A DNA stretch of 64,000 nucleotides, from contig QFXH01000010.1 in the NCBI GenBank assembly GCA_003402345.1, positions 5,409 through 69,408 on the forward strand. The letters run 5' to 3'. The stretch's first letter is position 1. The number at the start of each line of letters is the position of its first letter. The DNA comes from Candidatus Nitrotoga sp. MKT. Lineage in GTDB: Bacteria > Pseudomonadota > Gammaproteobacteria > Burkholderiales > Gallionellaceae. Both the position numbers and the translations under genes were made by a program. Shown piece by piece: positions 3,020 through 63,936 of this stretch. Below the pieces are notes generated by a model. That model saw only the letters and a program-made list of their open reading frames with translations. It made no database searches and was not told the DNA's origin.

Positions 3020-3625
3020 TTATTGCACCACTTCCGCTTTAGTAATGATTACATCTTCCAGCGGCACGTCTTGGTGGCCAGCGTTATTACCTGTTTTGAC
3101 CTTGCGGATAGCATCCAGTACTTCTGTACCTGACACTACTTTCCCGAATACGCAATAACCATAACCTTGGCTACTGGATGCAGTGTAGTCGAGAAACATG
3201 TTGTCTTTTAAGTTAATAAAAAACTGCGCTGTGGCAGAATGCGGATCTGAGGTGCGCGCCATGGCGATGGTATATTTATCGTTTGTCAAACCATTGGCTG
3301 CCTCGTTCCGAATAGGCGCTTTGGTAGGTTTTTCTTTCATACCGTGTTCGAAGCCGCCGCCTTGGATCATAAAGCCATCGATTACGCGGTGGAACAGCGT
3401 ATTATCATAAAATCCGCTGGTTACGTAGTCGAGGAAGTTCTTGGTCGTGTTAGGCGCTTTTTCAGCATCCAGTTCAATAGTGATATTGCCGAGGTTGGTA
3501 TGCAGTTTGACCATGTTAATTTTTCCTTTTTGTGCTGGATGGTGTTGAGAAATGGGAGCCGCTTGTGCTGTGCACAATAGCAGGCAACTAAGCAACAGAG
3601 TAACGAATATTTGTTGAAGTTTCAT
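3020..3625 (-). CDS. ppiB: cyclophilin-type peptidyl-prolyl isomerase with N-terminal signal peptide
   Basis: [37 protein letters not shown]; start MKLQQ behind GAGGA. Confidence 0.88.
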
Positions 3626-5536: not shown

Positions 5537-5838
5537 TATGTGGTACTTTACCGGAATGATTTTATGGTTGATACGAAAGATTTTGTTCGCTTAGGCGTAT
5601 AAATAATTACGCCACGTTTTACCAAAATTTCTCTATCAGTCAATCCTGCGCGATCATCACGCGAAATTTATGAAGCATTCAGAATAAATGGGTACCCAAT
5701 GAAACCGGATTCTATCAAACCTGCCCATTTTTTTCACAGCTTATCGTATCGGCTGACAAGGTGATCCTGCGTCATCTGTTTGAGTAAGGAGATTTTCGGG
5801 TAAAATTGTTGCTCTTGCCTTAAAAGAACCATCGAATA

Positions 5839-7515
5839 ATGAGCAGCCAGACACAAGCACCCATCCCCCACTTCATCCGCAATATTATTGAGGCCGATCT
5901 GGCGAGTGGTAAACATACCGATATTGCCACACGCTTCCCGCCGGAGCCAAATGGGTATCTGCATATTGGCCATGCCAAGTCTATTTGCCTGAATTTTGGT
6001 CTGGCAGGCGATTATCAGGGCCACTGCAATCTACGCTTCGACGATACCAATCCGGAAAAAGAAAGCGAAGAATATGCGCGTGCTATTCAGGAGGACGTTC
6101 AATGGCTGGGCTTTCAGTGGCAAGATGGGGTGCGATGGGCATCCGATTACTTCGAACAACTTTATGGTTACGCGGTCGAGTTAATCAAACAGGGCAAGGC
6201 TTATGTGGATGATCTCAGTGCTGAGGAAATGCGCGAATATCGTGGCACGCTTACGCATCCAGGCAAGCCCAGCCCATACCGTGAGCGTTCCATAGATGAA
6301 AATCTTGACCTGTTTCAGCGCATGCGCGCAGGAGAGTTTGCCGATGGCGCCAAGGTGCTGCGCGCTAAAATCGACATGGCTTCTGGCAATATCAATTTGC
6401 GCGACCCGGCGATTTACCGCATTCGTCGCGCACACCACATCCGCACGGGTGATGCGTGGTGTATCTATCCGATGTATGACTACACTCACTGCATTTCCGA
6501 TGCGCTGGAGTGCATTACTCACTCGTTATGTACGCTGGAGTTTGAAGACCACCGACCCTTATATGACTGGGTGCTGGATCAGTTGGCTGTACCGTCCCAT
6601 CCCCGACAAATTGAATTTTCGCGCCTGGAATTACGCTACACCATAACCAGCAAGCGCAAGCTGTTGCAACTTGTCACCGAGCAACATGTATCCGGCTGGG
6701 ATGATCCACGTATGCCAACCATTATCGGTATGCGCAGACGCGGATACACACCGCAAGGCATCCGCGAATTTACTCGCAGGATCGGTATTTCCAAGAGCGA
6801 AAATGTGGTTGATATGGCTGTACTGGAAGCATGCATCCGCGAAGATTTAGAGGCGCGTGCGGCGCGCGTGATGGCGGTGGTTAAACCGCTGAAGGTCATC
6901 ATCAGTAATTTTGTGGCGGGTGAGAGCCAATCACGCGAAGCGGGCTTTCATCCAGAACACCCAGAATTCGGTAGCCGCATAGTACCGTTCAGCAAAGAGA
7001 TTTGGATTGAAGTTGACGACTTTACCGAAAATCCACCTGCGGGCTGGCAGCGTTTGACACCCGGTGGTGAGGTGCGTTTGCGCTACAGCTATGTGATGCG
7101 CTGTGACGAAGTAGTAAAAGATATTGCCGGTAATGTAATCGAACTTCGTTGCTCTATTGATACAGATACGCTGGGCAAAAATCCGGTAGGACGCAAGGTG
7201 AAGGGCGTAATCCACTGGCTGTCCGCTGAACATGCGCTGCCTGCGGAGATTCGTTTGTATGACCGCTTGTTCACGGTACCGGAACCAGATAACGACAAGA
7301 CGCGCGATTTCTGTGAATTCATCAACCCAGCGTCGCTGACTGTAGTGCAGGGCTGGGTTGAACCTGCCGTGCGTGACGCGGCACCTGAAACACATTACCA
7401 ATTTGAACGTCTTGGATATTTTTGTACCGATCGGCATGAGCACGAACCGGGTGAAAAACTGACGTTCAACCGCACCGTGACCCTCAAAGATTCGTGGGCA
7501 AAAGATCAAAGTTAA
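5839..7515 (+). CDS. glnS: glutamine--tRNA ligase
   Basis: [47 protein letters not shown]. Confidence 0.97.
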
Positions 7516-52408: not shown

Positions 52409-52873
52409 TTAATCGCGTACCAGATGCTTCAAAATGAACCTCCACTCAGCAGGATCAACCGGTGTGATGGACAATCGGTTGCCCCGTTGCAAAACACGCA
52501 TGCCTTCTAATTGTGGATGACGGCGCAGCTCTGCCAATGAAATGGGTTCAATTTTCTTTACCCATTGCACATCTACATTAAACCACCGCGGCGTTTCCTG
52601 CGTGGCCTTGGGATCGAAATATTTGCTATTACGTTCGAATTGGGTTGCATCGGGATAGGCAGTGCTGGAAACGCGCGCAATGCCTGCAATGCCTGGTACA
52701 GCGCAATTAGAATGATAGAAAAATACCGCGTCGCCTTCGCACATCTGATCGCGCATGAAGTTACGTGCCTGATAGTTACGGACACCGTACCATGCCACTG
52801 TCTTGTCGGGCAAGTTAGCGAGGTCATCAATGCTAACGTCGCTCGGTTCAGACTTCATTAGCCAGTAACGCAT
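52409..52873 (-). CDS. EVE domain protein
   Basis: YWLMKSEP, W.GVRNYQARN, FFYHS, YFDPK, RLSI.PV...EW. Confidence 0.93.
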   Translation of the reverse strand: MRYWLMKSEPSDVSIDDLANLPDKTVAWYGVRNYQARNFMRDQMCEGDAVFFYHSNCAVPGIAGIARVSSTAYPDATQFERNSKYFDPKATQETPRWFNVDVQWVKKIEPISLAELRRHPQLEGMRVLQRGNRLSITPVDPAEWRFILKHLVRD

Positions 52874-52964: not shown

Positions 52965-53036
52965 CCCACCCAATCCGGTTAAAAACCCCACCCAGAATCC
53001 CACCCAAAAAACTCCCACCCAATTCCACCCCAGAAT
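52964..53036. repeat. clustered CCCACCCA repeats, probable integrase arm-type sites (left end)
   Basis: TCCCACCCAA at 52964 and 53013, CCCACCCAGAATCCCACCCAA at 52987, variant at 53024. Confidence 0.75.
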
Positions 53037-53042
53037 AAAACC

Positions 53043-54377
53043 ATGACCAAGAAGCTATCTGCAACAACCTGCGAGACAGTAAAGCCCAATCCGCTACGCG
53101 ACCGGCTGCTTGGCGATGGCGATGGATTGTTTCTGCGAGTGAGGCCGCACGGAACAAAAACATGGGTAATCGAATATGAATTTCAGGGTTGTCGCACAAA
53201 ATACACCATTGGCAGCTATGCACGCAACAGTGCAACGGGAGAGAGTATTCCAGATTGGCTGCGGAACGGCCAGCAATCCTTGACCCAAGCCCGTTCGATT
53301 GCCGGAAATTGGAAAGCTGCACGGCGCGCCGGGCGTGATCCAGTGGCAGAATGGGAAGCTCTGCTAACCCAAGAGCGGGAGACGGTGGAGACCAGGTTGG
53401 CGGCGGTGGCATCCGAGAGGGCGCAGCCGACCGTGAATGAAGCCGTCGAGTCTTTCATGGCGAAAATTATGGCCGGGAAAAAGTGCGCGCCCGCGATCCG
53501 CTATCGCCTTGACCGTCTGACGGCAATCATTGGTGACAAGAAAATTCGCGACGTGACGCGGCAGGATGTTATCGCGGCGCTGGATACCATCGCGGAAGGC
53601 CAGCGGGAAGGCAAGACGGCAAAGCAATTGAGCGGCGAGGTATTGACCCAAACAAAACGGCTATGGCGCTTCGCCAAATCGCGGGAATGGGTAGCAGTAT
53701 CCTGCGTGGAAGAGCTTACCCGGCGCGACTTCGATGCCAAGCCAACAAAGCGCGATGTGACCCTGCGGCTTGACGAATTGGCGGCAGTCTGGCGGGCGCT
53801 GGATAACCCAGAGCAATGCAAGTCTGATCCCGTGACCATCGCGGCAATGAAGCTGCTGATACTCACCGGACAGCGTGAAAGCGAAGTGACAGAAGCCGAA
53901 TGGACAGAATTCGACCTCGCGGTTGGATTGTGGAAAATCCCTGCGGAGCGCACAAAATCGGCACGCGCTCACCTTGTACATCTTGCCCCGCAAGCGGTGG
54001 CGATCATTGAAGCCCTAAAACAAATTACCGGGAAAAAGCGCCATGTGTTTGAATCGCCATTGAAGCCCGGTCAGGCGATCTACGGGCGATCCGTGAATAA
54101 CGCGCTGGCGACCCTGTTCAAGGGTGAAAAGCTGCCGAACGTGACGCGCTGCCATGTACATGATTTTCGGCGGACGCTGATAACCCGCTTGCCTGATCTG
54201 GGCTTTGAGCCATTCCTGGGCCACAAGATTGCAAATCACGTTCTATCTGGTGTGTTTGCGCACTACAACCACAACACTTACGAAGTGCAACGCGAGGCGG
54301 CGCTAAAAGCATGGGCCGCAAGGCTGGAAACGTTGGTGATGGGTAATAACGTGTCCCAATTGCACCGGGTAGCATAA
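53043..54377 (+). CDS. P4-like tyrosine integrase with arm-binding domain
   Basis: DGDGLFLRV...GTKTW arm-binding domain; TGQR.SE, K...AH.V.L, HD.RRT, ANH, Y. Confidence 0.93.
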   Translation: MTKKLSATTCETVKPNPLRDRLLGDGDGLFLRVRPHGTKTWVIEYEFQGCRTKYTIGSYARNSATGESIPDWLRNGQQSLTQARSIAGNWKAARRAGRDPVAEWEALLTQERETVETRLAAVASERAQPTVNEAVESFMAKIMAGKKCAPAIRYRLDRLTAIIGDKKIRDVTRQDVIAALDTIAEGQREGKTAKQLSGEVLTQTKRLWRFAKSREWVAVSCVEELTRRDFDAKPTKRDVTLRLDELAAVWRALDNPEQCKSDPVTIAAMKLLILTGQRESEVTEAEWTEFDLAVGLWKIPAERTKSARAHLVHLAPQAVAIIEALKQITGKKRHVFESPLKPGQAIYGRSVNNALATLFKGEKLPNVTRCHVHDFRRTLITRLPDLGFEPFLGHKIANHVLSGVFAHYNHNTYEVQREAALKAWAARLETLVMGNNVSQLHRVA

Positions 54378-54384
54378 CCAGTTT

Positions 54385-54436
54385 GCTGCACCTAGCCCGA
54401 CGGGGCGAACACGGGAAGCCTTACCCGCTGGTGCGA
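54385..54436 (+). ncRNA. structured element after the integrase, C4/int-alpA-like
   Basis: GCACC(T)AG/CTGGTGC closing stem enclosing CCC-GAC-GGG and CGGG-AAGCCTTA-CCCG hairpins. Confidence 0.4.
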
Positions 54437-54455
54437 CATCTCAATAAGGCATGGC

Positions 54456-55425: not shown

Positions 55426-55785
55426 ATGAACACCACAAACAACAATGCCGCCCCGCGCAATGGGGCGGCATCAACGCCACACGCCCACTCTACCAAAAGC
55501 CGATGGAATTACAAGGGCGGTTTTGATCGTGTGAGATTGCCGCACCCTTCGGATTACTTCGCACAGCAAGGCTTAAAGCTGACCGGCGGAGGCGAATGGA
55601 AAAACGCAATTTGCCCCTTCCACGAAGACACAAAGCCAAGTCTGAGAGTGCGCCTTGATACCGGCGGCTTTCGCTGCATGGTGTGTGGCGCGCACGGCGG
55701 CGATGTGCTGGCATTCCACCAGCAACGGCATGGGCTGAGCTTCAAACAGGCCGCGCAACAGTTGGGCACATGGAGGGTTGCATAA
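55426..55785 (+). CDS. stand-alone CHC2 zinc-finger (primase Zn-binding domain)
   Basis: CPFHEDTKPSL.V....GGFRCMVCGA.GGDV..F. Confidence 0.88.
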   Translation: MNTTNNNAAPRNGAASTPHAHSTKSRWNYKGGFDRVRLPHPSDYFAQQGLKLTGGGEWKNAICPFHEDTKPSLRVRLDTGGFRCMVCGAHGGDVLAFHQQRHGLSFKQAAQQLGTWRVA

Positions 55786-57995
55786 TGGAAAAGGAAATCA
55801 TCGAAGCAACCCAAACCGCTGCGCTGAGGCTGACTAACAAACCCCGCAAGGACGGCTATTCACTTGACCCGAAGCACGGCGGGGCGATCCACCACTATAC
55901 CGACCGCGAGGGTGCAATCACGTTTGCGCGGCTTCGCTTGAAACATCCCGAGACTGGCGACAAATGGATCAGGCCATTGCGCCGTGATGCGGCCGGTATC
56001 TGGTGCGAATTGAAAACACCCGAGTTCACCGGCGGTGCGCCGCTCTACCATCTGCATCATCTGTGCGATCCGGCGCGGCAGTCTGAGCGCGTGATTCTAG
56101 TCGAGGGCGAATACTGCTCGGACAGTCTGGCAGTACGCGGCATCCTGGCCACCACGAGCGGCGGGGCGCAATCGGTAGATACAACGGACTGGCAACCATT
56201 AGCAGAACGCAACGTGCTGATATGGCCAGACAACGACAAGGCAGGTTCTGACTACGCACAACACGCGGCGGACAAGCTGCGCGCCCTGGGTTGCACCGTG
56301 TCATTCATCGACGTGTCGGTATTGGATTTACCCGCGAAAGGTGATGTAGTGGAGTGGCTCAAAGCCTTTCAGCAACAGCACGGACGCAAGGCAACGGCGG
56401 CGGATATTTGGGCATTGCCGGTTATTGAGCGCGCACCGGAAAAAATCGAGGCCGTAGGATGCGATTCTAGCCCTTCGATTGCATCGAGTGATGCTACGCC
56501 CTTGCCGGAAAACGCCGCGCAAGCTGACACGCCACCAGTGCTGTCAGACGATAAAACTATCAAGTGGCTGGCATCGCTCAAACCGCTGGAATATGAAAAG
56601 GCGCGCATTGATAAAGCAAAGGCAATGAGTTGTCGCCCTGCTGTATTGGATGGCCTGGTAAAAGCGGCGCGATCCGAGGGCGGCGAAGCGGACAGGTTGC
56701 CCTTCGCTGAAATCGAGCCGCACCCCGAACCGATAGACCCGGCCATATTGTTGAGTGACGTGGTGAACCTAATCCGGCAGTTCATCGTGCTGGACACTGA
56801 GCAAGCTACCGCATCAGCCTTGTGGGTTGCACTTACTTGGTTTATTGACGTGGTACAGGTTGCGCCGCTGCTAGTCATTACTGCACCTGAAATGGCGTGC
56901 GGTAAATCACAGCTTCGCGACTTGCTTTCAAGGATCGTGATGCGCCCCCTATCCACCAATAACATGAAGGCGGCAACCCTATTCAGGATTGCTGAAAAGT
57001 GGCATCCGTCATTGATGCTTGATGAAGTGGATTTAATGCTGAAGTCAGACGATGAAATTATCAATCTGGTGAATGCCGGACACCATCGCGGCGCAAGTCA
57101 GGTGTGGCGATTAGTGGGCGACAATCATGAACCGAAATCCTTTGATGTATGGGGCGCAAAATGCTTTGCCGGTATTGCCCTTGAAAAGATATTCCCAGCG
57201 TCAACACTGAGCCGCGCGATCATCATAAAGCTACGCCGGAAACTATCGCACGAATCGGTAAGCAGGATGCGCCATGCGGACGGCGATATATTTATCAGCA
57301 TCGCTGAAAAGCTGGCACGGTTTGCGGTGGACTATGCGCACCAGGTCAAGCAGGCGCGCCCCGTGTTGCCCGAGGTATTGAGCGACCGCGATCAGGACAA
57401 CTGGGAATGCCTACTGGCGATTGCATCATGCGCGGGGGCTGAGTGGTTGGCCAGGGCAACAGCGGCGGCATTGAAGTTATCCGGCGCGGCTGAAAAAACG
57501 GTCAGCATGGGTAATGAATTGCTGGCAGATATCCAGCACATCTTCGAGACCAAGCGCGTGGACAAGATCAGCACGGCGGATTTAATCGCGGCGCTGTGCG
57601 CTGACGAAGAGGCGGCATGGGCGACCTGGAATAGAGGCAAGCAGCTATCGCCCCGGCAGCTTTCGCGACAACTGGCAGGGTATAGCATCACGTCAAAAAA
57701 TATCCGGCTTGGTTATGGAATATCTAAAGGCTTCGAGTTGTCGCAGTTTGCCGATGCTTTCATGCGCTATCTGTCCACCCCCCTGAATTTGCCGCTACTT
57801 CCGCTACAAACGCCGGAAGCCAATAAACACGGCGCTATCAGCGTAGCGGACAATCCGCTACAAAAAGCTATCCGTAACAATTCCGCTACGCTGGAAGCCC
57901 CGCCGTTGCTGGATTGTAGCGGTGTAGCGGATAAAAAGCCGATTTTGGGGGGAGCCGAGACACCCCGCCCCACCACTTCACATTTGAGGATATAG
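55785..57995 (+). CDS. Toprim primase fused to DUF3631-type helicase/replication domain
   Basis: VILVEGE, TTSGGA, IWPDND.AG; A..LWV..TW, CGKS, LDEVD, LN.GH.RG, R..DNWE.LL.IA, L...EE..W; TAATG coupling to the CHC2 gene. Confidence 0.85.
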   Translation: MEKEIIEATQTAALRLTNKPRKDGYSLDPKHGGAIHHYTDREGAITFARLRLKHPETGDKWIRPLRRDAAGIWCELKTPEFTGGAPLYHLHHLCDPARQSERVILVEGEYCSDSLAVRGILATTSGGAQSVDTTDWQPLAERNVLIWPDNDKAGSDYAQHAADKLRALGCTVSFIDVSVLDLPAKGDVVEWLKAFQQQHGRKATAADIWALPVIERAPEKIEAVGCDSSPSIASSDATPLPENAAQADTPPVLSDDKTIKWLASLKPLEYEKARIDKAKAMSCRPAVLDGLVKAARSEGGEADRLPFAEIEPHPEPIDPAILLSDVVNLIRQFIVLDTEQATASALWVALTWFIDVVQVAPLLVITAPEMACGKSQLRDLLSRIVMRPLSTNNMKAATLFRIAEKWHPSLMLDEVDLMLKSDDEIINLVNAGHHRGASQVWRLVGDNHEPKSFDVWGAKCFAGIALEKIFPASTLSRAIIIKLRRKLSHESVSRMRHADGDIFISIAEKLARFAVDYAHQVKQARPVLPEVLSDRDQDNWECLLAIASCAGAEWLARATAAALKLSGAAEKTVSMGNELLADIQHIFETKRVDKISTADLIAALCADEEAAWATWNRGKQLSPRQLSRQLAGYSITSKNIRLGYGISKGFELSQFADAFMRYLSTPLNLPLLPLQTPEANKHGAISVADNPLQKAIRNNSATLEAPPLLDCSGVADKKPILGGAETPRPTTSHLRI
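57792..57931. repeat. iteron-like CCGCTAC repeats in both orientations, probable origin
   Basis: CCGCTAC at 57792, 57801, 57855, 57883; variant CCGTAAC at 57872; inverted GTAGCGG at 57843, 57916, 57924. Confidence 0.7.
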
Positions 57996-60978: not shown

Positions 60979-62580
60979 ATGCGCCCCTTGTTTCGACACG
61001 CCACACTTGCTACCGTCCTCCTCTTTGTGGCATTCACCGTCCACGCCAAGACCGCCAACGAAATTTATGAACAGGCCGCAAGAAGTACGGTCGTCGTGGA
61101 AAATATCGGCGATAAGGAGAAAATCCATGCAATGGGTAGTGGCGTCGTACTTGCCGACGGATATGTAGTGACCAATTGCCACGTTGTCAAAGGCGCCAGC
61201 CAGCTCAAGGTACGCATCGGGGCCAAGGAGCACTCGGCTACTCTGCGCTATTCCGACTGGGATCGGGATGTATGCTCCCTCAGCATCGCGGGCCTTGGCG
61301 CCTCGGCTGTCGTGGTCGGCAGCACCAAAACGCTCAAAGTCGGTGCGAAGGTCTATGCCATCGGCGCCCCCAAGGGCCTCGAACTCACGCTCTCGGACGG
61401 CATCGTCTCCAGCCTGCGCGAGGTCGAAGGCGGCCACTACATCCAGACCACCGCCGCCATCTCGCCCGGCTCCAGCGGTGGCGGACTGTTCGATGAGAAC
61501 GGCGAGCTGGTGGGGCTGACAACTTTCTATCTCACGGAGGGGCAAAATCTCAATTTCGCCGTACCCATCGAATGGGTGAAAGACCTCGCCAAACGCAGCA
61601 CCACGGCATCGGCAGTCGCGCAACCCGTGACACAGTGGCTGAACAAAGTCATTGAATTGGAAAGCCGCAAGGACTGGCCAGCTATGCTCGAACACAGCAG
61701 TCGCTGGACGAAGGCGCAGCCTAGCAATAGCATGGCGTGGTACAGCCTAGGCTTCGCCTACGCCAAGGCCGGTCAGTCCACCAAGGCCATCGAAGCCTAC
61801 CAGCAGGCCCTGCGCATCAACCCGGAATATGAAGGTGCATGGAACAGCCTGGGCAACGCCTACGCCAAGGCCGGTCAGTCTACCAAGGCCATCGAAGCCT
61901 ACCAGCAGGCCCTGCGCATCAACCCGGAAGATGCCGATACATGGAACAGCCTGGGCAACGCCTACGCCAAGGCCGGTCAGTCCACCAAGGCCATCGAAGC
62001 CTACCAGCAGGCCCTGCGCATCAATCCGGAACATGCCGATGCATGGAACAACCTGGGCAACGCCTACGGTATGGACGGTCAGTCTGCCAAAGCCATCGAA
62101 GCCTACCAGCAGGCCCTGCGCATCAACCCGGAAGATGCCGATGCATGGAACAACCTGGGCGTCACCTACCTTAATACTAGCCAGACCACCAAGGCCATCG
62201 AAGCCTGTCAGCAGGCCCTGCGCATCAATCCGGAATATGCCGATGCATGAAACAACCTGGGCAACGCCTACGGTATGGACGGTCAGTCTGCCAAAGCCAT
62301 CGAAGCCTACCAGCAGGCCCTACGCATCAACCCGGAATATGCCGGGGTGTGGTACAACCTGGGTTCCGTCTACGATGACGTTGGTCAGCCCGCCAAGGCC
62401 ATCGAAGCCTTCCAACATGCCCTGCGCATCAATCCGGAATATGCCATGGCGTGGAACAACCTGGGCGTGGCCTACGCACGGTCAGGGCAGCGTGACAAGG
62501 TGCTCGAAGTCTACAAGCGGCTCAAGACACTTGACCCTGCGCGCGCGGAACGCTTCTTCAAAGCGGCAGTGATCCCCTGA
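60979..62580 (+). pseudogene. exported trypsin-like serine protease with 8 TPRs, interrupted by in-frame TGA at 62248-62250
   Basis: TNCHV, D.C, ISPGSSGGGL triad; the frame continues after TGA with NNLGNAY. Confidence 0.85.
61729..62544 (+). repeat. eight tandem 102-bp TPR-coding repeats
   Basis: AAGGCCATCGAAGCCTACCAGCAGGCCCTGCGCATCAA core recurs every 102 bp; last repeat divergent. Confidence 0.9.
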
Positions 62581-62872
62581 TGTTCTAGCACAGTGACATC
62601 GGACAAAGCGCAGAAGGCAAAAACCCGCCCTCTGCTTTAGCTCCGTTGCCCAGTGTGTTCGCTCTGTTGCCGCCGCACGTTTCACCACTGCGCACCTAGC
62701 GAAAGCCCCCTCGCAAGGCGCTTGCGATTCGCAGGCGGCTGGCGGTGGTCAACTGGCCGTACAGCGCCCGTTCGATACTGTGCAAGGCGTTATGGTTATA
62801 CTGCCTTTGTCTTCTGTTCCCCGCCCGCCCAGGGGCTCCCTAAGAGCACTGATGCGTAGGCTTTCATTCAGC

Positions 62873-62957
62873 TTGACTGAGCCTGCGGATGACGCATATA
62901 GTTTACCTAACAATACCCGCCACGCCTCTGATTCAAGCGTACCCCGGCGGGTTTTTT
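62873..62957 (+). ncRNA. promoter plus abiF-like hairpin RNA
   Basis: TTGACT-18 bp-TATAGT, then CCCGCC-ACGC-loop-GCGT-ACCCC-GGCGGG-T6. Confidence 0.55.
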
Positions 62958-62967
62958 ATTCCCGCGT

Positions 62968-63000
62968 TCTCGTGGATTGACCATCCCGGATGAAGCCCGC
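62968..63000 (+). pseudogene. 11-codon relic of an Abi (AbiF/AbiD, Abi_2) gene N-terminus
   Basis: Translates SRGLTIPDEAR, matching the RGLxIxDE motif of Abi-family N-termini. Confidence 0.55.
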
Positions 63001-63037
63001 ACCGGCGCGATTAAGACCTGCTGTAACTGATATGACG

Positions 63038-63403
63038 CTATGCCATCGCCTTGCCTCGTGTGCCGGTTAGCTTGGTAGATGCGGTGCGCGCCTTTGCTGC
63101 TGGCTGTTGAGCGATGTGATCGAGCAATACGGGCGGGCGGTTGGGGAAGCGTGCGACCAGGTCGAGTTCGCCGCCCATTGCCTGAACATAGCGGCGCAGT
63201 GTGGAGAGTAGCAAGTCGCTACGGCGTTCAATGCGCGAGATCGTGTCCTGTCCTACCCCAAGGCTCGCGGCGAGGTCTTGTTGGGTGTGTTCAACGGCCA
63301 AGCGCAAGTCCTTGAGCGTTGCCAGTTCACCCGCGCGCTGTTCCACTTTTGCGCGACGCTTGGGCGGCAGCGCAGCCAACACATCATTTAGATTTTTTGC
63401 CAT
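63038..63403 (-). CDS. XRE-family HTH antitoxin (HigA-like)
   Basis: LKDLR......Q..LA..LGV.Q..ISRIERRSDLLLSTLRRYV.AMGG.L. Confidence 0.88.
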   Translation of the reverse strand: MAKNLNDVLAALPPKRRAKVEQRAGELATLKDLRLAVEHTQQDLAASLGVGQDTISRIERRSDLLLSTLRRYVQAMGGELDLVARFPNRPPVLLDHIAQQPAAKARTASTKLTGTRGKAMA

Positions 63404-63788
63404 GATTTTTCTCCTTTACTTGCTTTGAAATGCTGGTGGTTTTGAGCGTAGCCAGATGCCCGTCAAATCTTGCATCGGCGCTGGCAATCAGCTTTTTATA
63501 GAATCGCCGCTGATCTGCGCCACCCTTGTCGCCGCCCACCAGCAGGATTGCTGCGCGTTCGGTATCAAATGCGAAAGCCACCCGCCATACCCCGCCTTCA
63601 CAATCAAAACGCAACTCTTTCATATTCGCGTGCTTCGAGCCTTTGAGCGTATCTACCGTTGGCCTGCCCAAGTGTGGGCCGAATTCCTGAAGGAGCCGGG
63701 CGTGAGCGAGCAACTCATCCTGGAGCGCGCCACCCATCGCCTGAAACTCGGCGTGAAAGTCATCGTGAAAGAGTACGTTCCAAGGCAT
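63384..63788 (-). CDS. RelE/ParE-family toxin (HigB-like, toxin-first)
   Basis: L...GP.LGRP.VDTL.GS...NMKELR......WR..FAFD..R.AILL.GGDK. Confidence 0.9.
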   Translation of the reverse strand: MPWNVLFHDDFHAEFQAMGGALQDELLAHARLLQEFGPHLGRPTVDTLKGSKHANMKELRFDCEGGVWRVAFAFDTERAAILLVGGDKGGADQRRFYKKLIASADARFDGHLATLKTTSISKQVKEKNHGKKSK

Positions 63789-63915
63789 GAGCGGATTATG
63801 TTCTTAAAGACATATTATTTCAAGGTGGCCGTGACGGTGCATTGCTTCAAGATAAAAGGTTAACGAAGGGATACTTACTCGACCACGACCACCGTAAGGC
63901 AGACACATCAAATGT

Positions 63916-63936
63916 CCCACCCAGAATCCCACCCAA
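63916..63936. repeat. right-end copy of the 21-bp repeat
   Basis: CCCACCCAGAATCCCACCCAA, identical to 52987-53007. Confidence 0.85.

Follow-up and report, generated by a model that had tools for sequence, protein, structure and literature searches.

Promoter, abiF RNA and toxin remnant at the MKT locus

The locus described here lies in a 64-kb stretch of DNA from Nitrotoga MKT (hereafter the window) and opens with a sigma-70-type promoter on the plus strand (62873–62902), in which the −35 hexamer TTGACT (62873–62878) and the −10 hexamer TATAGT (62897–62902) are separated by an 18-nt spacer and together match 10 of the 12 consensus positions, with 5 of 6 matched in the −10 hexamer. A promoter scan of the 1.7-kb region returned 3 promoter-like sites where 0.6 would be expected, and the placement of the two hexamers is kept across 32 aligned abiF loci, whose consensus reads TTG...TATAnT and ends 6 nt before AACAACA. 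The abiF RNA motif itself (RF03085; 62916–62952, plus strand) starts 13 nt past the promoter. Its score with the RF03085 covariance model is borderline, at 37.1 bits relative to a gathering score of 37, with all of model positions 1–37 covered, and the intact abiF RNAs of congeners reach 39.1 bits with the same model. The E-values for this interval are 0.0043 for the 64-kb window, 4.3e-5 for the genome, and 1.1e-4 for a local search, so that the abiF identity proposed in a sequence-only reading of this DNA held up, if narrowly, when the family model was applied.

The minimum free energy fold of 62916–62952 (−15.8 kcal/mol, z = −2.19) gives a hairpin with an outer stem of CCCGCC/GGCGGG plus an A-U pair, an inner stem of ACGC/GCGU, an 11-nt loop, and a bulge of ACCCC. 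Membership of the abiF family was judged structurally by a 6-bp outer stem, a 3-bp inner stem, a loop of ~11 nt starting with (C)CUCU, and a 3' bulge of 5–7 nt, and the MKT RNA forms all 9 of the 9 pairs, with the loop CUCUGAUUCAA and the bulge UACCCC. The structure of the family is backed by covariation, as compensatory changes occur in 6 of the 9 pairs, a level reached by 0 of 500 shuffles. With a T6 run (62952–62957) directly 3' of the hairpin, the promoter and terminator predict a primary transcript of ~49 nt (62909–62958, plus strand) made up of the leader AACAAUA, the abiF hairpin, and the U6 run. Sequence and structure both place the MKT locus in the abiF RNA family, and the ~49-nt RNA is probably still made from the intact promoter.

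Downstream of the hairpin is an N-terminal remnant of an Abi_2/AbiF gene (62956–63003, plus strand), which comprises ~15 codons (~48 nt) and reads (L)FPRSRGLTIPDEART. It corresponds to residues ~14–30 of the 300-aa AbiF of Nitrotoga SPKER, where the aligned counterpart is VLLRARGLTITDEDRA. The codons SRGLTIPDEAR (62968–63000) fall within the frame GFLFPRSRGLTIPDEARTGAIKTCCN*, in which a usable start codon is absent, and the remnant is 88% identical in DNA to congener AbiF N-termini over 33 nt and shares 9 of 12 residues with RARGLTITDEDR. The alignments also place it colinear with the abiF RNA, as in the intact congener loci, and by this evidence the SRGLTIPDEAR fragment is true AbiF homology, more than a motif resemblance. 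The sequence-only reading had described the near-consensus promoter, the bulged hairpin, the T6 run, and 11 codons lacking a start, and each of these is found where it had been placed; the 11-codon remnant is real, while its extent had been drawn too short, since homology to AbiF DNA continues over the whole of the ~15-codon interval given above. The presence of this remnant beside the RNA demonstrates that RNA and toxin were formerly linked.

Alignments to intact loci reveal two lesions in the toxin gene. The first lies right behind the U-run, with its junction at 62953–62959 (plus strand) in a TTTTA(T/C) microhomology, and has taken out 61 nt, which leaves the gene without its RBS, its ATG, and codons 1–16 (MSFTKPAIDIDAQIVL); all intact relatives carry about 46–65 nt at this site, start codon included. 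At the second lesion, AbiF homology ends at ~63003 and the sequence of a Gp49/HTH cassette begins at ~63005–63007, and the HEPN domain of AbiF is wholly missing from the locus. No adjacent same-strand Abi_2/AbiF gene follows the MKT RNA, only the ~15-codon remnant, no Abi_2 was found elsewhere in the MKT genome, and when the SPKER AbiF was used as the query of a permissive tblastn search of the island and the entire genome, only noise was returned beyond the remnant. The earlier proposal that the toxin was lost on both sides of the fragment is thus upheld by the intact-locus alignments together with the genome-wide lack of Abi_2, and the MKT locus has ceased to belong to an AbiF system. What is left of the gene departs from its relatives at only two unique residues.

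The replacing cassette (63005–63830, minus strand) is convergent on the abiF RNA and, by its Pfam domains, encodes a Gp49/DUF891 (HigB/RelE-like) toxin (63384–63788, minus strand) and an XRE-HTH antitoxin (63038–63403, minus strand); the promoter scan places a promoter-like site for it at 63823–63795 on the same strand. A precise NCBIfam name was found neither for the Gp49-like toxin nor for AbiF. Copies of the cassette with 88–90% identity occur in unrelated contexts in two genomes (G013 and G022), and a degenerate copy is present in a third (G004), with homology beginning at ~63007. The fact that the cassette is a discrete unit elsewhere, with a boundary at ~63005–63007, means that the body of the AbiF gene was replaced by a mobile TA cassette of opposite orientation.

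Intact relatives and the 11.2-kb island

The MKT RNA is identical at 36 of 37 positions to the RNAs directly upstream of intact Abi_2/AbiF genes in Nitrotoga SPKER (G014/L011; RNA at 5825–5861, with a 300-aa ORF from an ATG at 5884) and Nitrotoga BS (G001/L012; RNA at 3488–3524, then a 305-aa ORF), and likewise to Gallionellaceae copies. The promoter hexamers read TTGACC and TATACT in the congeners, relative to TTGACT and TATAGT in MKT. The same order of promoter, RNA, and AbiF is present in an uncultured Gallionellaceae genome, a Gallionella genome, and six metagenome contigs. The SPKER protein contains an Abi_2 domain (E=2.7e-56) and matches the AbiF of the AbiF-ncRNA complex 8VZ6 over its full length (E=7.7e-51), including the ...SRGLTIAD... 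segment, and in the closest plasmid matches (Legionella pLPP and Acinetobacter plasmids) annotated Abi genes follow the RNA. Across genomes, metagenomes, and plasmids, then, the closest matches to the MKT RNA lie upstream of Abi genes, the outcome on which the sequence-only reading had staked its claim. The orphan allele of MKT was seen in no other genome or metagenome contig searched, and a search of the phage collection with the promoter, RNA, and fragment found nothing.

In the BS genome, the abiF RNA and AbiF form a mini-island of ~1.6 kb by a tRNA gene, accompanied by a broken integrase N-terminus and bounded by direct repeats of ~115 bp (L012 2930–3050 and 4585–4700). This mini-island is a minimal mobile package of the AbiF system.

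In MKT, the abiF locus belongs to an int-alpA-primase island of 11.2 kb, close to its right end (~1 kb away), and the borders of this island follow from comparison with the congener G016. The left copy of a 16-bp target duplication, TTAGCCAGTAACGCAT, lies at 52858–52873, and the right copy, TTAGCCAATAACGCAT, at the window-equivalent positions 64032–64047 (32–47 nt past the window end), with core homology resuming at 64032; G016, the closest species (96% identity in the flank), has one unbroken copy of the target and hence an empty site. The target duplication and the empty G016 site together put the island at ~11.2 kb and mean that it was gained recently, or else lost recently in the sister species. 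Just inside the borders is an exact 21-bp direct repeat, CCCACCCAGAATCCCACCCAA (52987–53007 and 63916–63936, both plus strand), which is probably an arm-type site of the integrase. The island encodes a tyrosine integrase with Arm-DNA-bind_3 and Phage_integrase domains (53043–54377, plus strand), an int-alpA RNA (RF02996, 53 bits; 54385–54450, plus strand), which is a marker of int-alpA type mobile islands, a CHC2 zinc-finger ORF (55426–55785) that precedes and overlaps the primase in another frame, and the Toprim-DUF3631 primase itself, as identified with Pfam (55683–57995, plus strand). Further cargo consists of small genes, an adhesin-E-like protein, and a trypsin-TPR protein. The carriage of the MKT RNA on a mobile element is evident from the 16-bp target duplication, the integrase, the int-alpA RNA, the primase, and the empty site. 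Homologues of the primase are found in other Nitrotoga genomes and as a second copy within the MKT genome, and the abiF cargo is not shared by the related islands of the genus.

Several further features of the island were recorded. The primase homologues (G020:C222, G000:C11:35517-37802, and G029:C76), one of which lies in the second MKT island, each contain one in-frame TGA, which could be due to conserved recoding or to parallel decay. Repeats of the CCCACCCA type occur as the exact 21-mer at both island ends, and a very similar string is found by the promoter of an orphan abiF RNA in Gallionellaceae UBA2239 (L020 ~1606–1630), a similarity in sequence that suggests related integrase arm sites in the MKT island and the UBA2239 element. 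The trypsin-like protease with its TPR array (60979–62580) is split into ORFs at 60979–62250 and 62275–62580, and the array consists of seven overlapping registers of a 102-bp unit. An element of ~140 nt at 62600–62740 has copies of 75–86% identity in many Nitrotoga genomes and in one other family; it opens with a terminator-like hairpin, also adjoins the SPKER abiF locus on the opposite strand, and in the Gallionellaceae contig L028 two copies of it apparently precede the abiF RNA, judging from ORF translations. No Rfam family matched this element at 62600–62740, and its fold was no better than that of shuffles.

Solo abiF RNAs across related genomes

To place the MKT locus among other abiF RNAs, we consider two censuses in which each species was represented by a single genome and hits had to pass a cut-off on the hairpin score, so that the orphan fractions are rough. 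The order-level sample of 401 genomes contained 9 with an above-threshold abiF RNA, 4 of them with Abi_2 directly downstream and 5, MKT included, with no Abi_2 genome-wide. A class-level sample of 400 further genomes added 18 threshold-passing loci besides MKT, which divide into 8 with an intact adjacent Abi_2, 1 that is frameshifted (G591), and 9 orphans. Within the roughness of such censuses, about half of the threshold-passing abiF RNAs in ~800 related genomes have no Abi_2 beside them. Among metagenome contigs carrying the exact MKT RNA, 3 of 10 have no Abi_2 downstream.

The solo or orphan loci (L016, L018, L020, L021/L026, L052, L054, L057, L059, L060, L069, L071, L063, and L074) are set either in defense islands, with hsdM, hsdR, PIN, Panacea, and HigA-like modules, or at the ends of mobile elements and beside convergent integrases. 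The surroundings of ten orphan loci were read in detail. Downstream of the orphan RNA there is a Panacea-antitoxin pair in G136, a DUF3800 gene in G076, a HigA-like gene and hsdR in G531, and nothing in G238, while in G116 two tandem motifs are followed by a PIN toxin pair beside hsdM. The two orphans of G589 each face a convergent integrase 8 nt away, and the convergent gene is kinase-like at G641 C5 and a DUF1016 fragment at G721. In G755 (L052, G755:C17, 1313–1600, minus strand), the RNA is accompanied by an AbiF N-terminal stub of ~37 residues, which is colinear with AbiF residues 3–39 (pairwise E=0.01) and is followed by a different small gene and integrase fragments.

A toxin-linked copy in comparable surroundings was observed on the Acinetobacter plasmid NZ_CP032285.1 (L076, 2501–3487), where the abiF RNA and its Abi gene sit inside a type I R-M operon. 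The flanking genes are a NucS-domain gene and hsdR, which parallels the hsdM and hsdR neighbors of the orphans in G116 and G531.

The G755 stub is one of several parallel intermediates of decay, the others being an Abi_2 gene truncated after ~95 aa and lying beside transposase fragments (G251), the frameshifted gene of G591, and a fragment with a stop (G602). Orphan and toxin-linked loci are alike in stem integrity, U-run, and −10 quality, with a mean −10 match of 4.87 vs. 4.80, and this −10 comparison is not circular since the promoter lies outside the search model. The selection of intact hairpins by the search does, in turn, favor young relics in the census. The well-kept promoters of the orphans fit young relics and also fit selection for a solo RNA.

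It is also important to consider whether the MKT RNA itself has begun to decay. Relaxed constraint was at one point suggested by a C25 to U change in the bulge and by a leader of AACAATA rather than AACAACA, both apparently unique among 15 close copies. This signal was dropped after alignment of 32 loci, in which position 25 is G or A in the intact loci G534 C2, G589 C262, and G641 C34, and the leader variant AACAATA is also present in the intact G269 locus. In the same 32 loci, U25 is seen only in MKT and in one further orphan, G531. The frequency of U25, 2 of 18 orphans vs. 0 of 25 toxin-linked copies, does not differ significantly (Fisher exact p ~0.17, calculated by hand). Neither the MKT RNA nor its promoter gives any sign of decay, with 9 of 9 pairs, the U-run, and both hexamers kept. 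The orphan paralogues of G589 are 94% identical overall, with 3 differences in ~50 RNA positions and thus about 6% divergence in RNA and flanks alike, a comparison that says little on constraint.

Probable decay of an AbiF system and alternative readings

We consider it likely that the MKT locus is a decayed AbiF/AbiFr type III toxin-antitoxin (abortive-infection) locus, formerly cargo of the island, in which the RNA has outlasted its toxin. The observations from which this reading starts are the homology to intact loci, the two lesions, the absence of Abi_2, the island borders, and the empty site. In the intact system, a constitutive promoter gives rise to a short hairpin RNA with a terminal U-run, and this hairpin serves in cis as an attenuating terminator that limits read-through into the toxin gene and in trans as a ligand that binds and inhibits the HEPN RNase AbiF. 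In MKT, the 61-nt deletion at the TTTTA microhomology has stripped the gene of its ribosome-binding site, its start, and 16 codons, and recombination at ~63005 has exchanged the rest of the AbiF gene for the convergent Gp49/HTH cassette. Both lesions leave the promoter, leader, hairpin, and U-run untouched, and the RNA has no partner in the MKT genome.

The fact that losing the antitoxin first kills the cell means that every viable intermediate has kept the antitoxin and lost the toxin, and the RNA would persist in MKT for two reasons, the need for an antitoxin to be lost after its toxin and the recent date of the event. That the toxin was lost recently is probable from the two unique residues of the fragment and the absence of the allele from other assemblies. 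We infer that the surviving RNA is neutral, and the order and age of the lesions are inferred in the same way. Against decay stand the undegraded state of the RNA and promoter, the orphan state of about half of the family, and the position of the locus on a mobile element amid cognate AbiF systems that circulate in the genus, a setting in which carrying a solo antidote would be of advantage.

A different explanation, which we regard as unlikely, is that the RNA has been selected as a stand-alone antidote, with the island's abiF RNA neutralizing the AbiF of recipient hosts or of competing addiction-module elements and thereby aiding establishment of the island or a helper phage. RNA and promoter are whole while the toxin was destroyed twice, the island that carries them is missing from the nearest species, and congener AbiF systems with a 36/37-identical RNA exist for such an antidote to act on. 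Neutralization in trans by an abiF-motif RNA has been shown for RCd22 (10.1101/2025.04.15.648962), the PhiTE pseudo-ToxI (PMC3475682) and orphan protein antitoxins (PMC11825919; PMC11541004) offer precedents, and as a class the orphan abiF RNAs are both common and well preserved. However, the toxin scar marks an ordinary TA locus, and not acquisition as a solo RNA, as the origin of this copy, there is no second independent copy of the orphan allele, and neither the related islands of the genus nor the phage collection contain abiF cargo or a match, respectively. In the G589 orphan pair, the only such pair compared, the RNA differs as much as the flanks, by about 6%, and survivorship, with the toxin lost first, yields the same picture without selection. 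An extended form of this explanation is likewise unlikely in our view. In it, the MKT RNA would be a selected trans-acting anti-AbiF antidote born by deletion of its own toxin in a satellite-like island, and would document one such birth within a broader and so far undescribed class of solo RNAs, which account for about half of the abiF loci in the sampled Gammaproteobacteria, lie at the borders of defense islands and mobile elements, and would be used by mobile elements to disarm AbiF abortive infection or AbiF-based addiction. Where the sequence-only reading had left a choice between a fossil and a stand-alone anti-defense RNA, the evidence favors the fossil.

Two other readings seem less plausible still. 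The hairpin might have been exapted by its new neighbor, either to terminate and insulate the convergent Gp49/HTH operon or, through read-through from the abiF promoter, to supply an antisense RNA that tunes this operon, which we judge to be quite improbable. The TA operon ends at 63038 with no terminator-like site before the hairpin 86 nt away, and other orphan hairpins are also located at the 3' end of a convergent gene (twice in G589, and in G641 C5 and G721). Read on the minus strand, the hairpin runs into UAUUGUU, just as the leader AACAACA gives UGUUGUU in all family members, but this is a poor U-tract; in addition, the promoter is intact although a terminator has no need of it, and other copies of the TA cassette lack an abiF hairpin. 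The prospect of an artifact, be it a chance GC-rich terminator hairpin or a deletion or junction created by assembly error, draws on an RF03085 score just 0.1 bit over threshold and on the draft state of the 2.7-Mb MKT genome (23 contigs), and we find it scarcely credible. At intact AbiF loci there are RNAs that match the MKT copy at 36/37 positions and share its flanks, the MKT RNA is then followed by a colinear AbiF N-terminus, and both junctions lie in unique sequence within an 83-kb contig of an assembly with an estimated completeness of 100% and contamination of 0.02%.

The proposed origin as a decayed system can be compared with what is known of abiF-motif RNAs, which are type III antitoxins (bioRxiv 10.1101/2025.04.15.648962). 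In C. difficile, RCd22 acts in cis by premature termination, which reduces expression of abiF, and in trans by binding the toxin directly and thereby neutralizing it (bioRxiv 10.1101/2025.04.15.648962), and in the PbAbiF structure the bulge nucleotides of AbiFr inhibit the HEPN RNase (reviewed in PMC12737573). Like the AbiFr of the Prevotellaceae AbiF (8VZ6) and the RCd22 of the phi027 AbiF, the MKT RNA has a two-tier hairpin, a loop starting with CUCU, a 3' bulge, its own promoter, and a U-run, and the AbiF of its relatives is a full-length homologue of PbAbiF, as in the 8VZ6 system. It differs from these systems in having neither a toxin gene nor a partner AbiF in the genome, and from RCd22, which has two motifs, in having a single one.

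Among toxin-less antitoxins, the pseudo-ToxI RNA of phage PhiTE mimics a type III antitoxin against ToxIN (PMC3475682), and orphan protein antitoxins act as counter-defense or anti-addiction factors in phages (DarG-like; PMC11825919) and in plasmid leading regions (PMC11541004). The MKT RNA resembles all of these in being an antitoxin without a toxin on a mobile element, with cognate toxins in related hosts. In those cases, however, neutralization has been demonstrated and the solo state is conserved, whereas the MKT copy is known from sequence and still has a piece of the toxin gene it once accompanied.

Cas13 and its crRNA have been proposed to descend from AbiF and its RNA. If the solo RNAs are more than scars, they would amount to a simple RNA-only device for counter-defense or anti-addiction, comparable to the PhiTE pseudo-ToxI and to antitoxin proteins that lack their toxins. 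As scars, they would instead gauge the speed at which defense cargo is turned over, and they would serve as a warning to annotators that a match to the abiF RNA does not imply an AbiF system.

The MKT locus taken alone is an ordinary but unusually legible case of TA decay, in which both lesions, the replacing cassette, and intact relatives are all visible; its wider value lies in the class-level pattern of solo abiF RNAs. It resembles decaying chromosomal TA loci and the cargo turnover at the variable end of P4-like or int-alpA-primase islands, where one TA or defense cassette is supplanted by another. Unlike the usual decaying TA locus, the scar in MKT is not a protein pseudogene but an RNA gene that is complete and still has its promoter.
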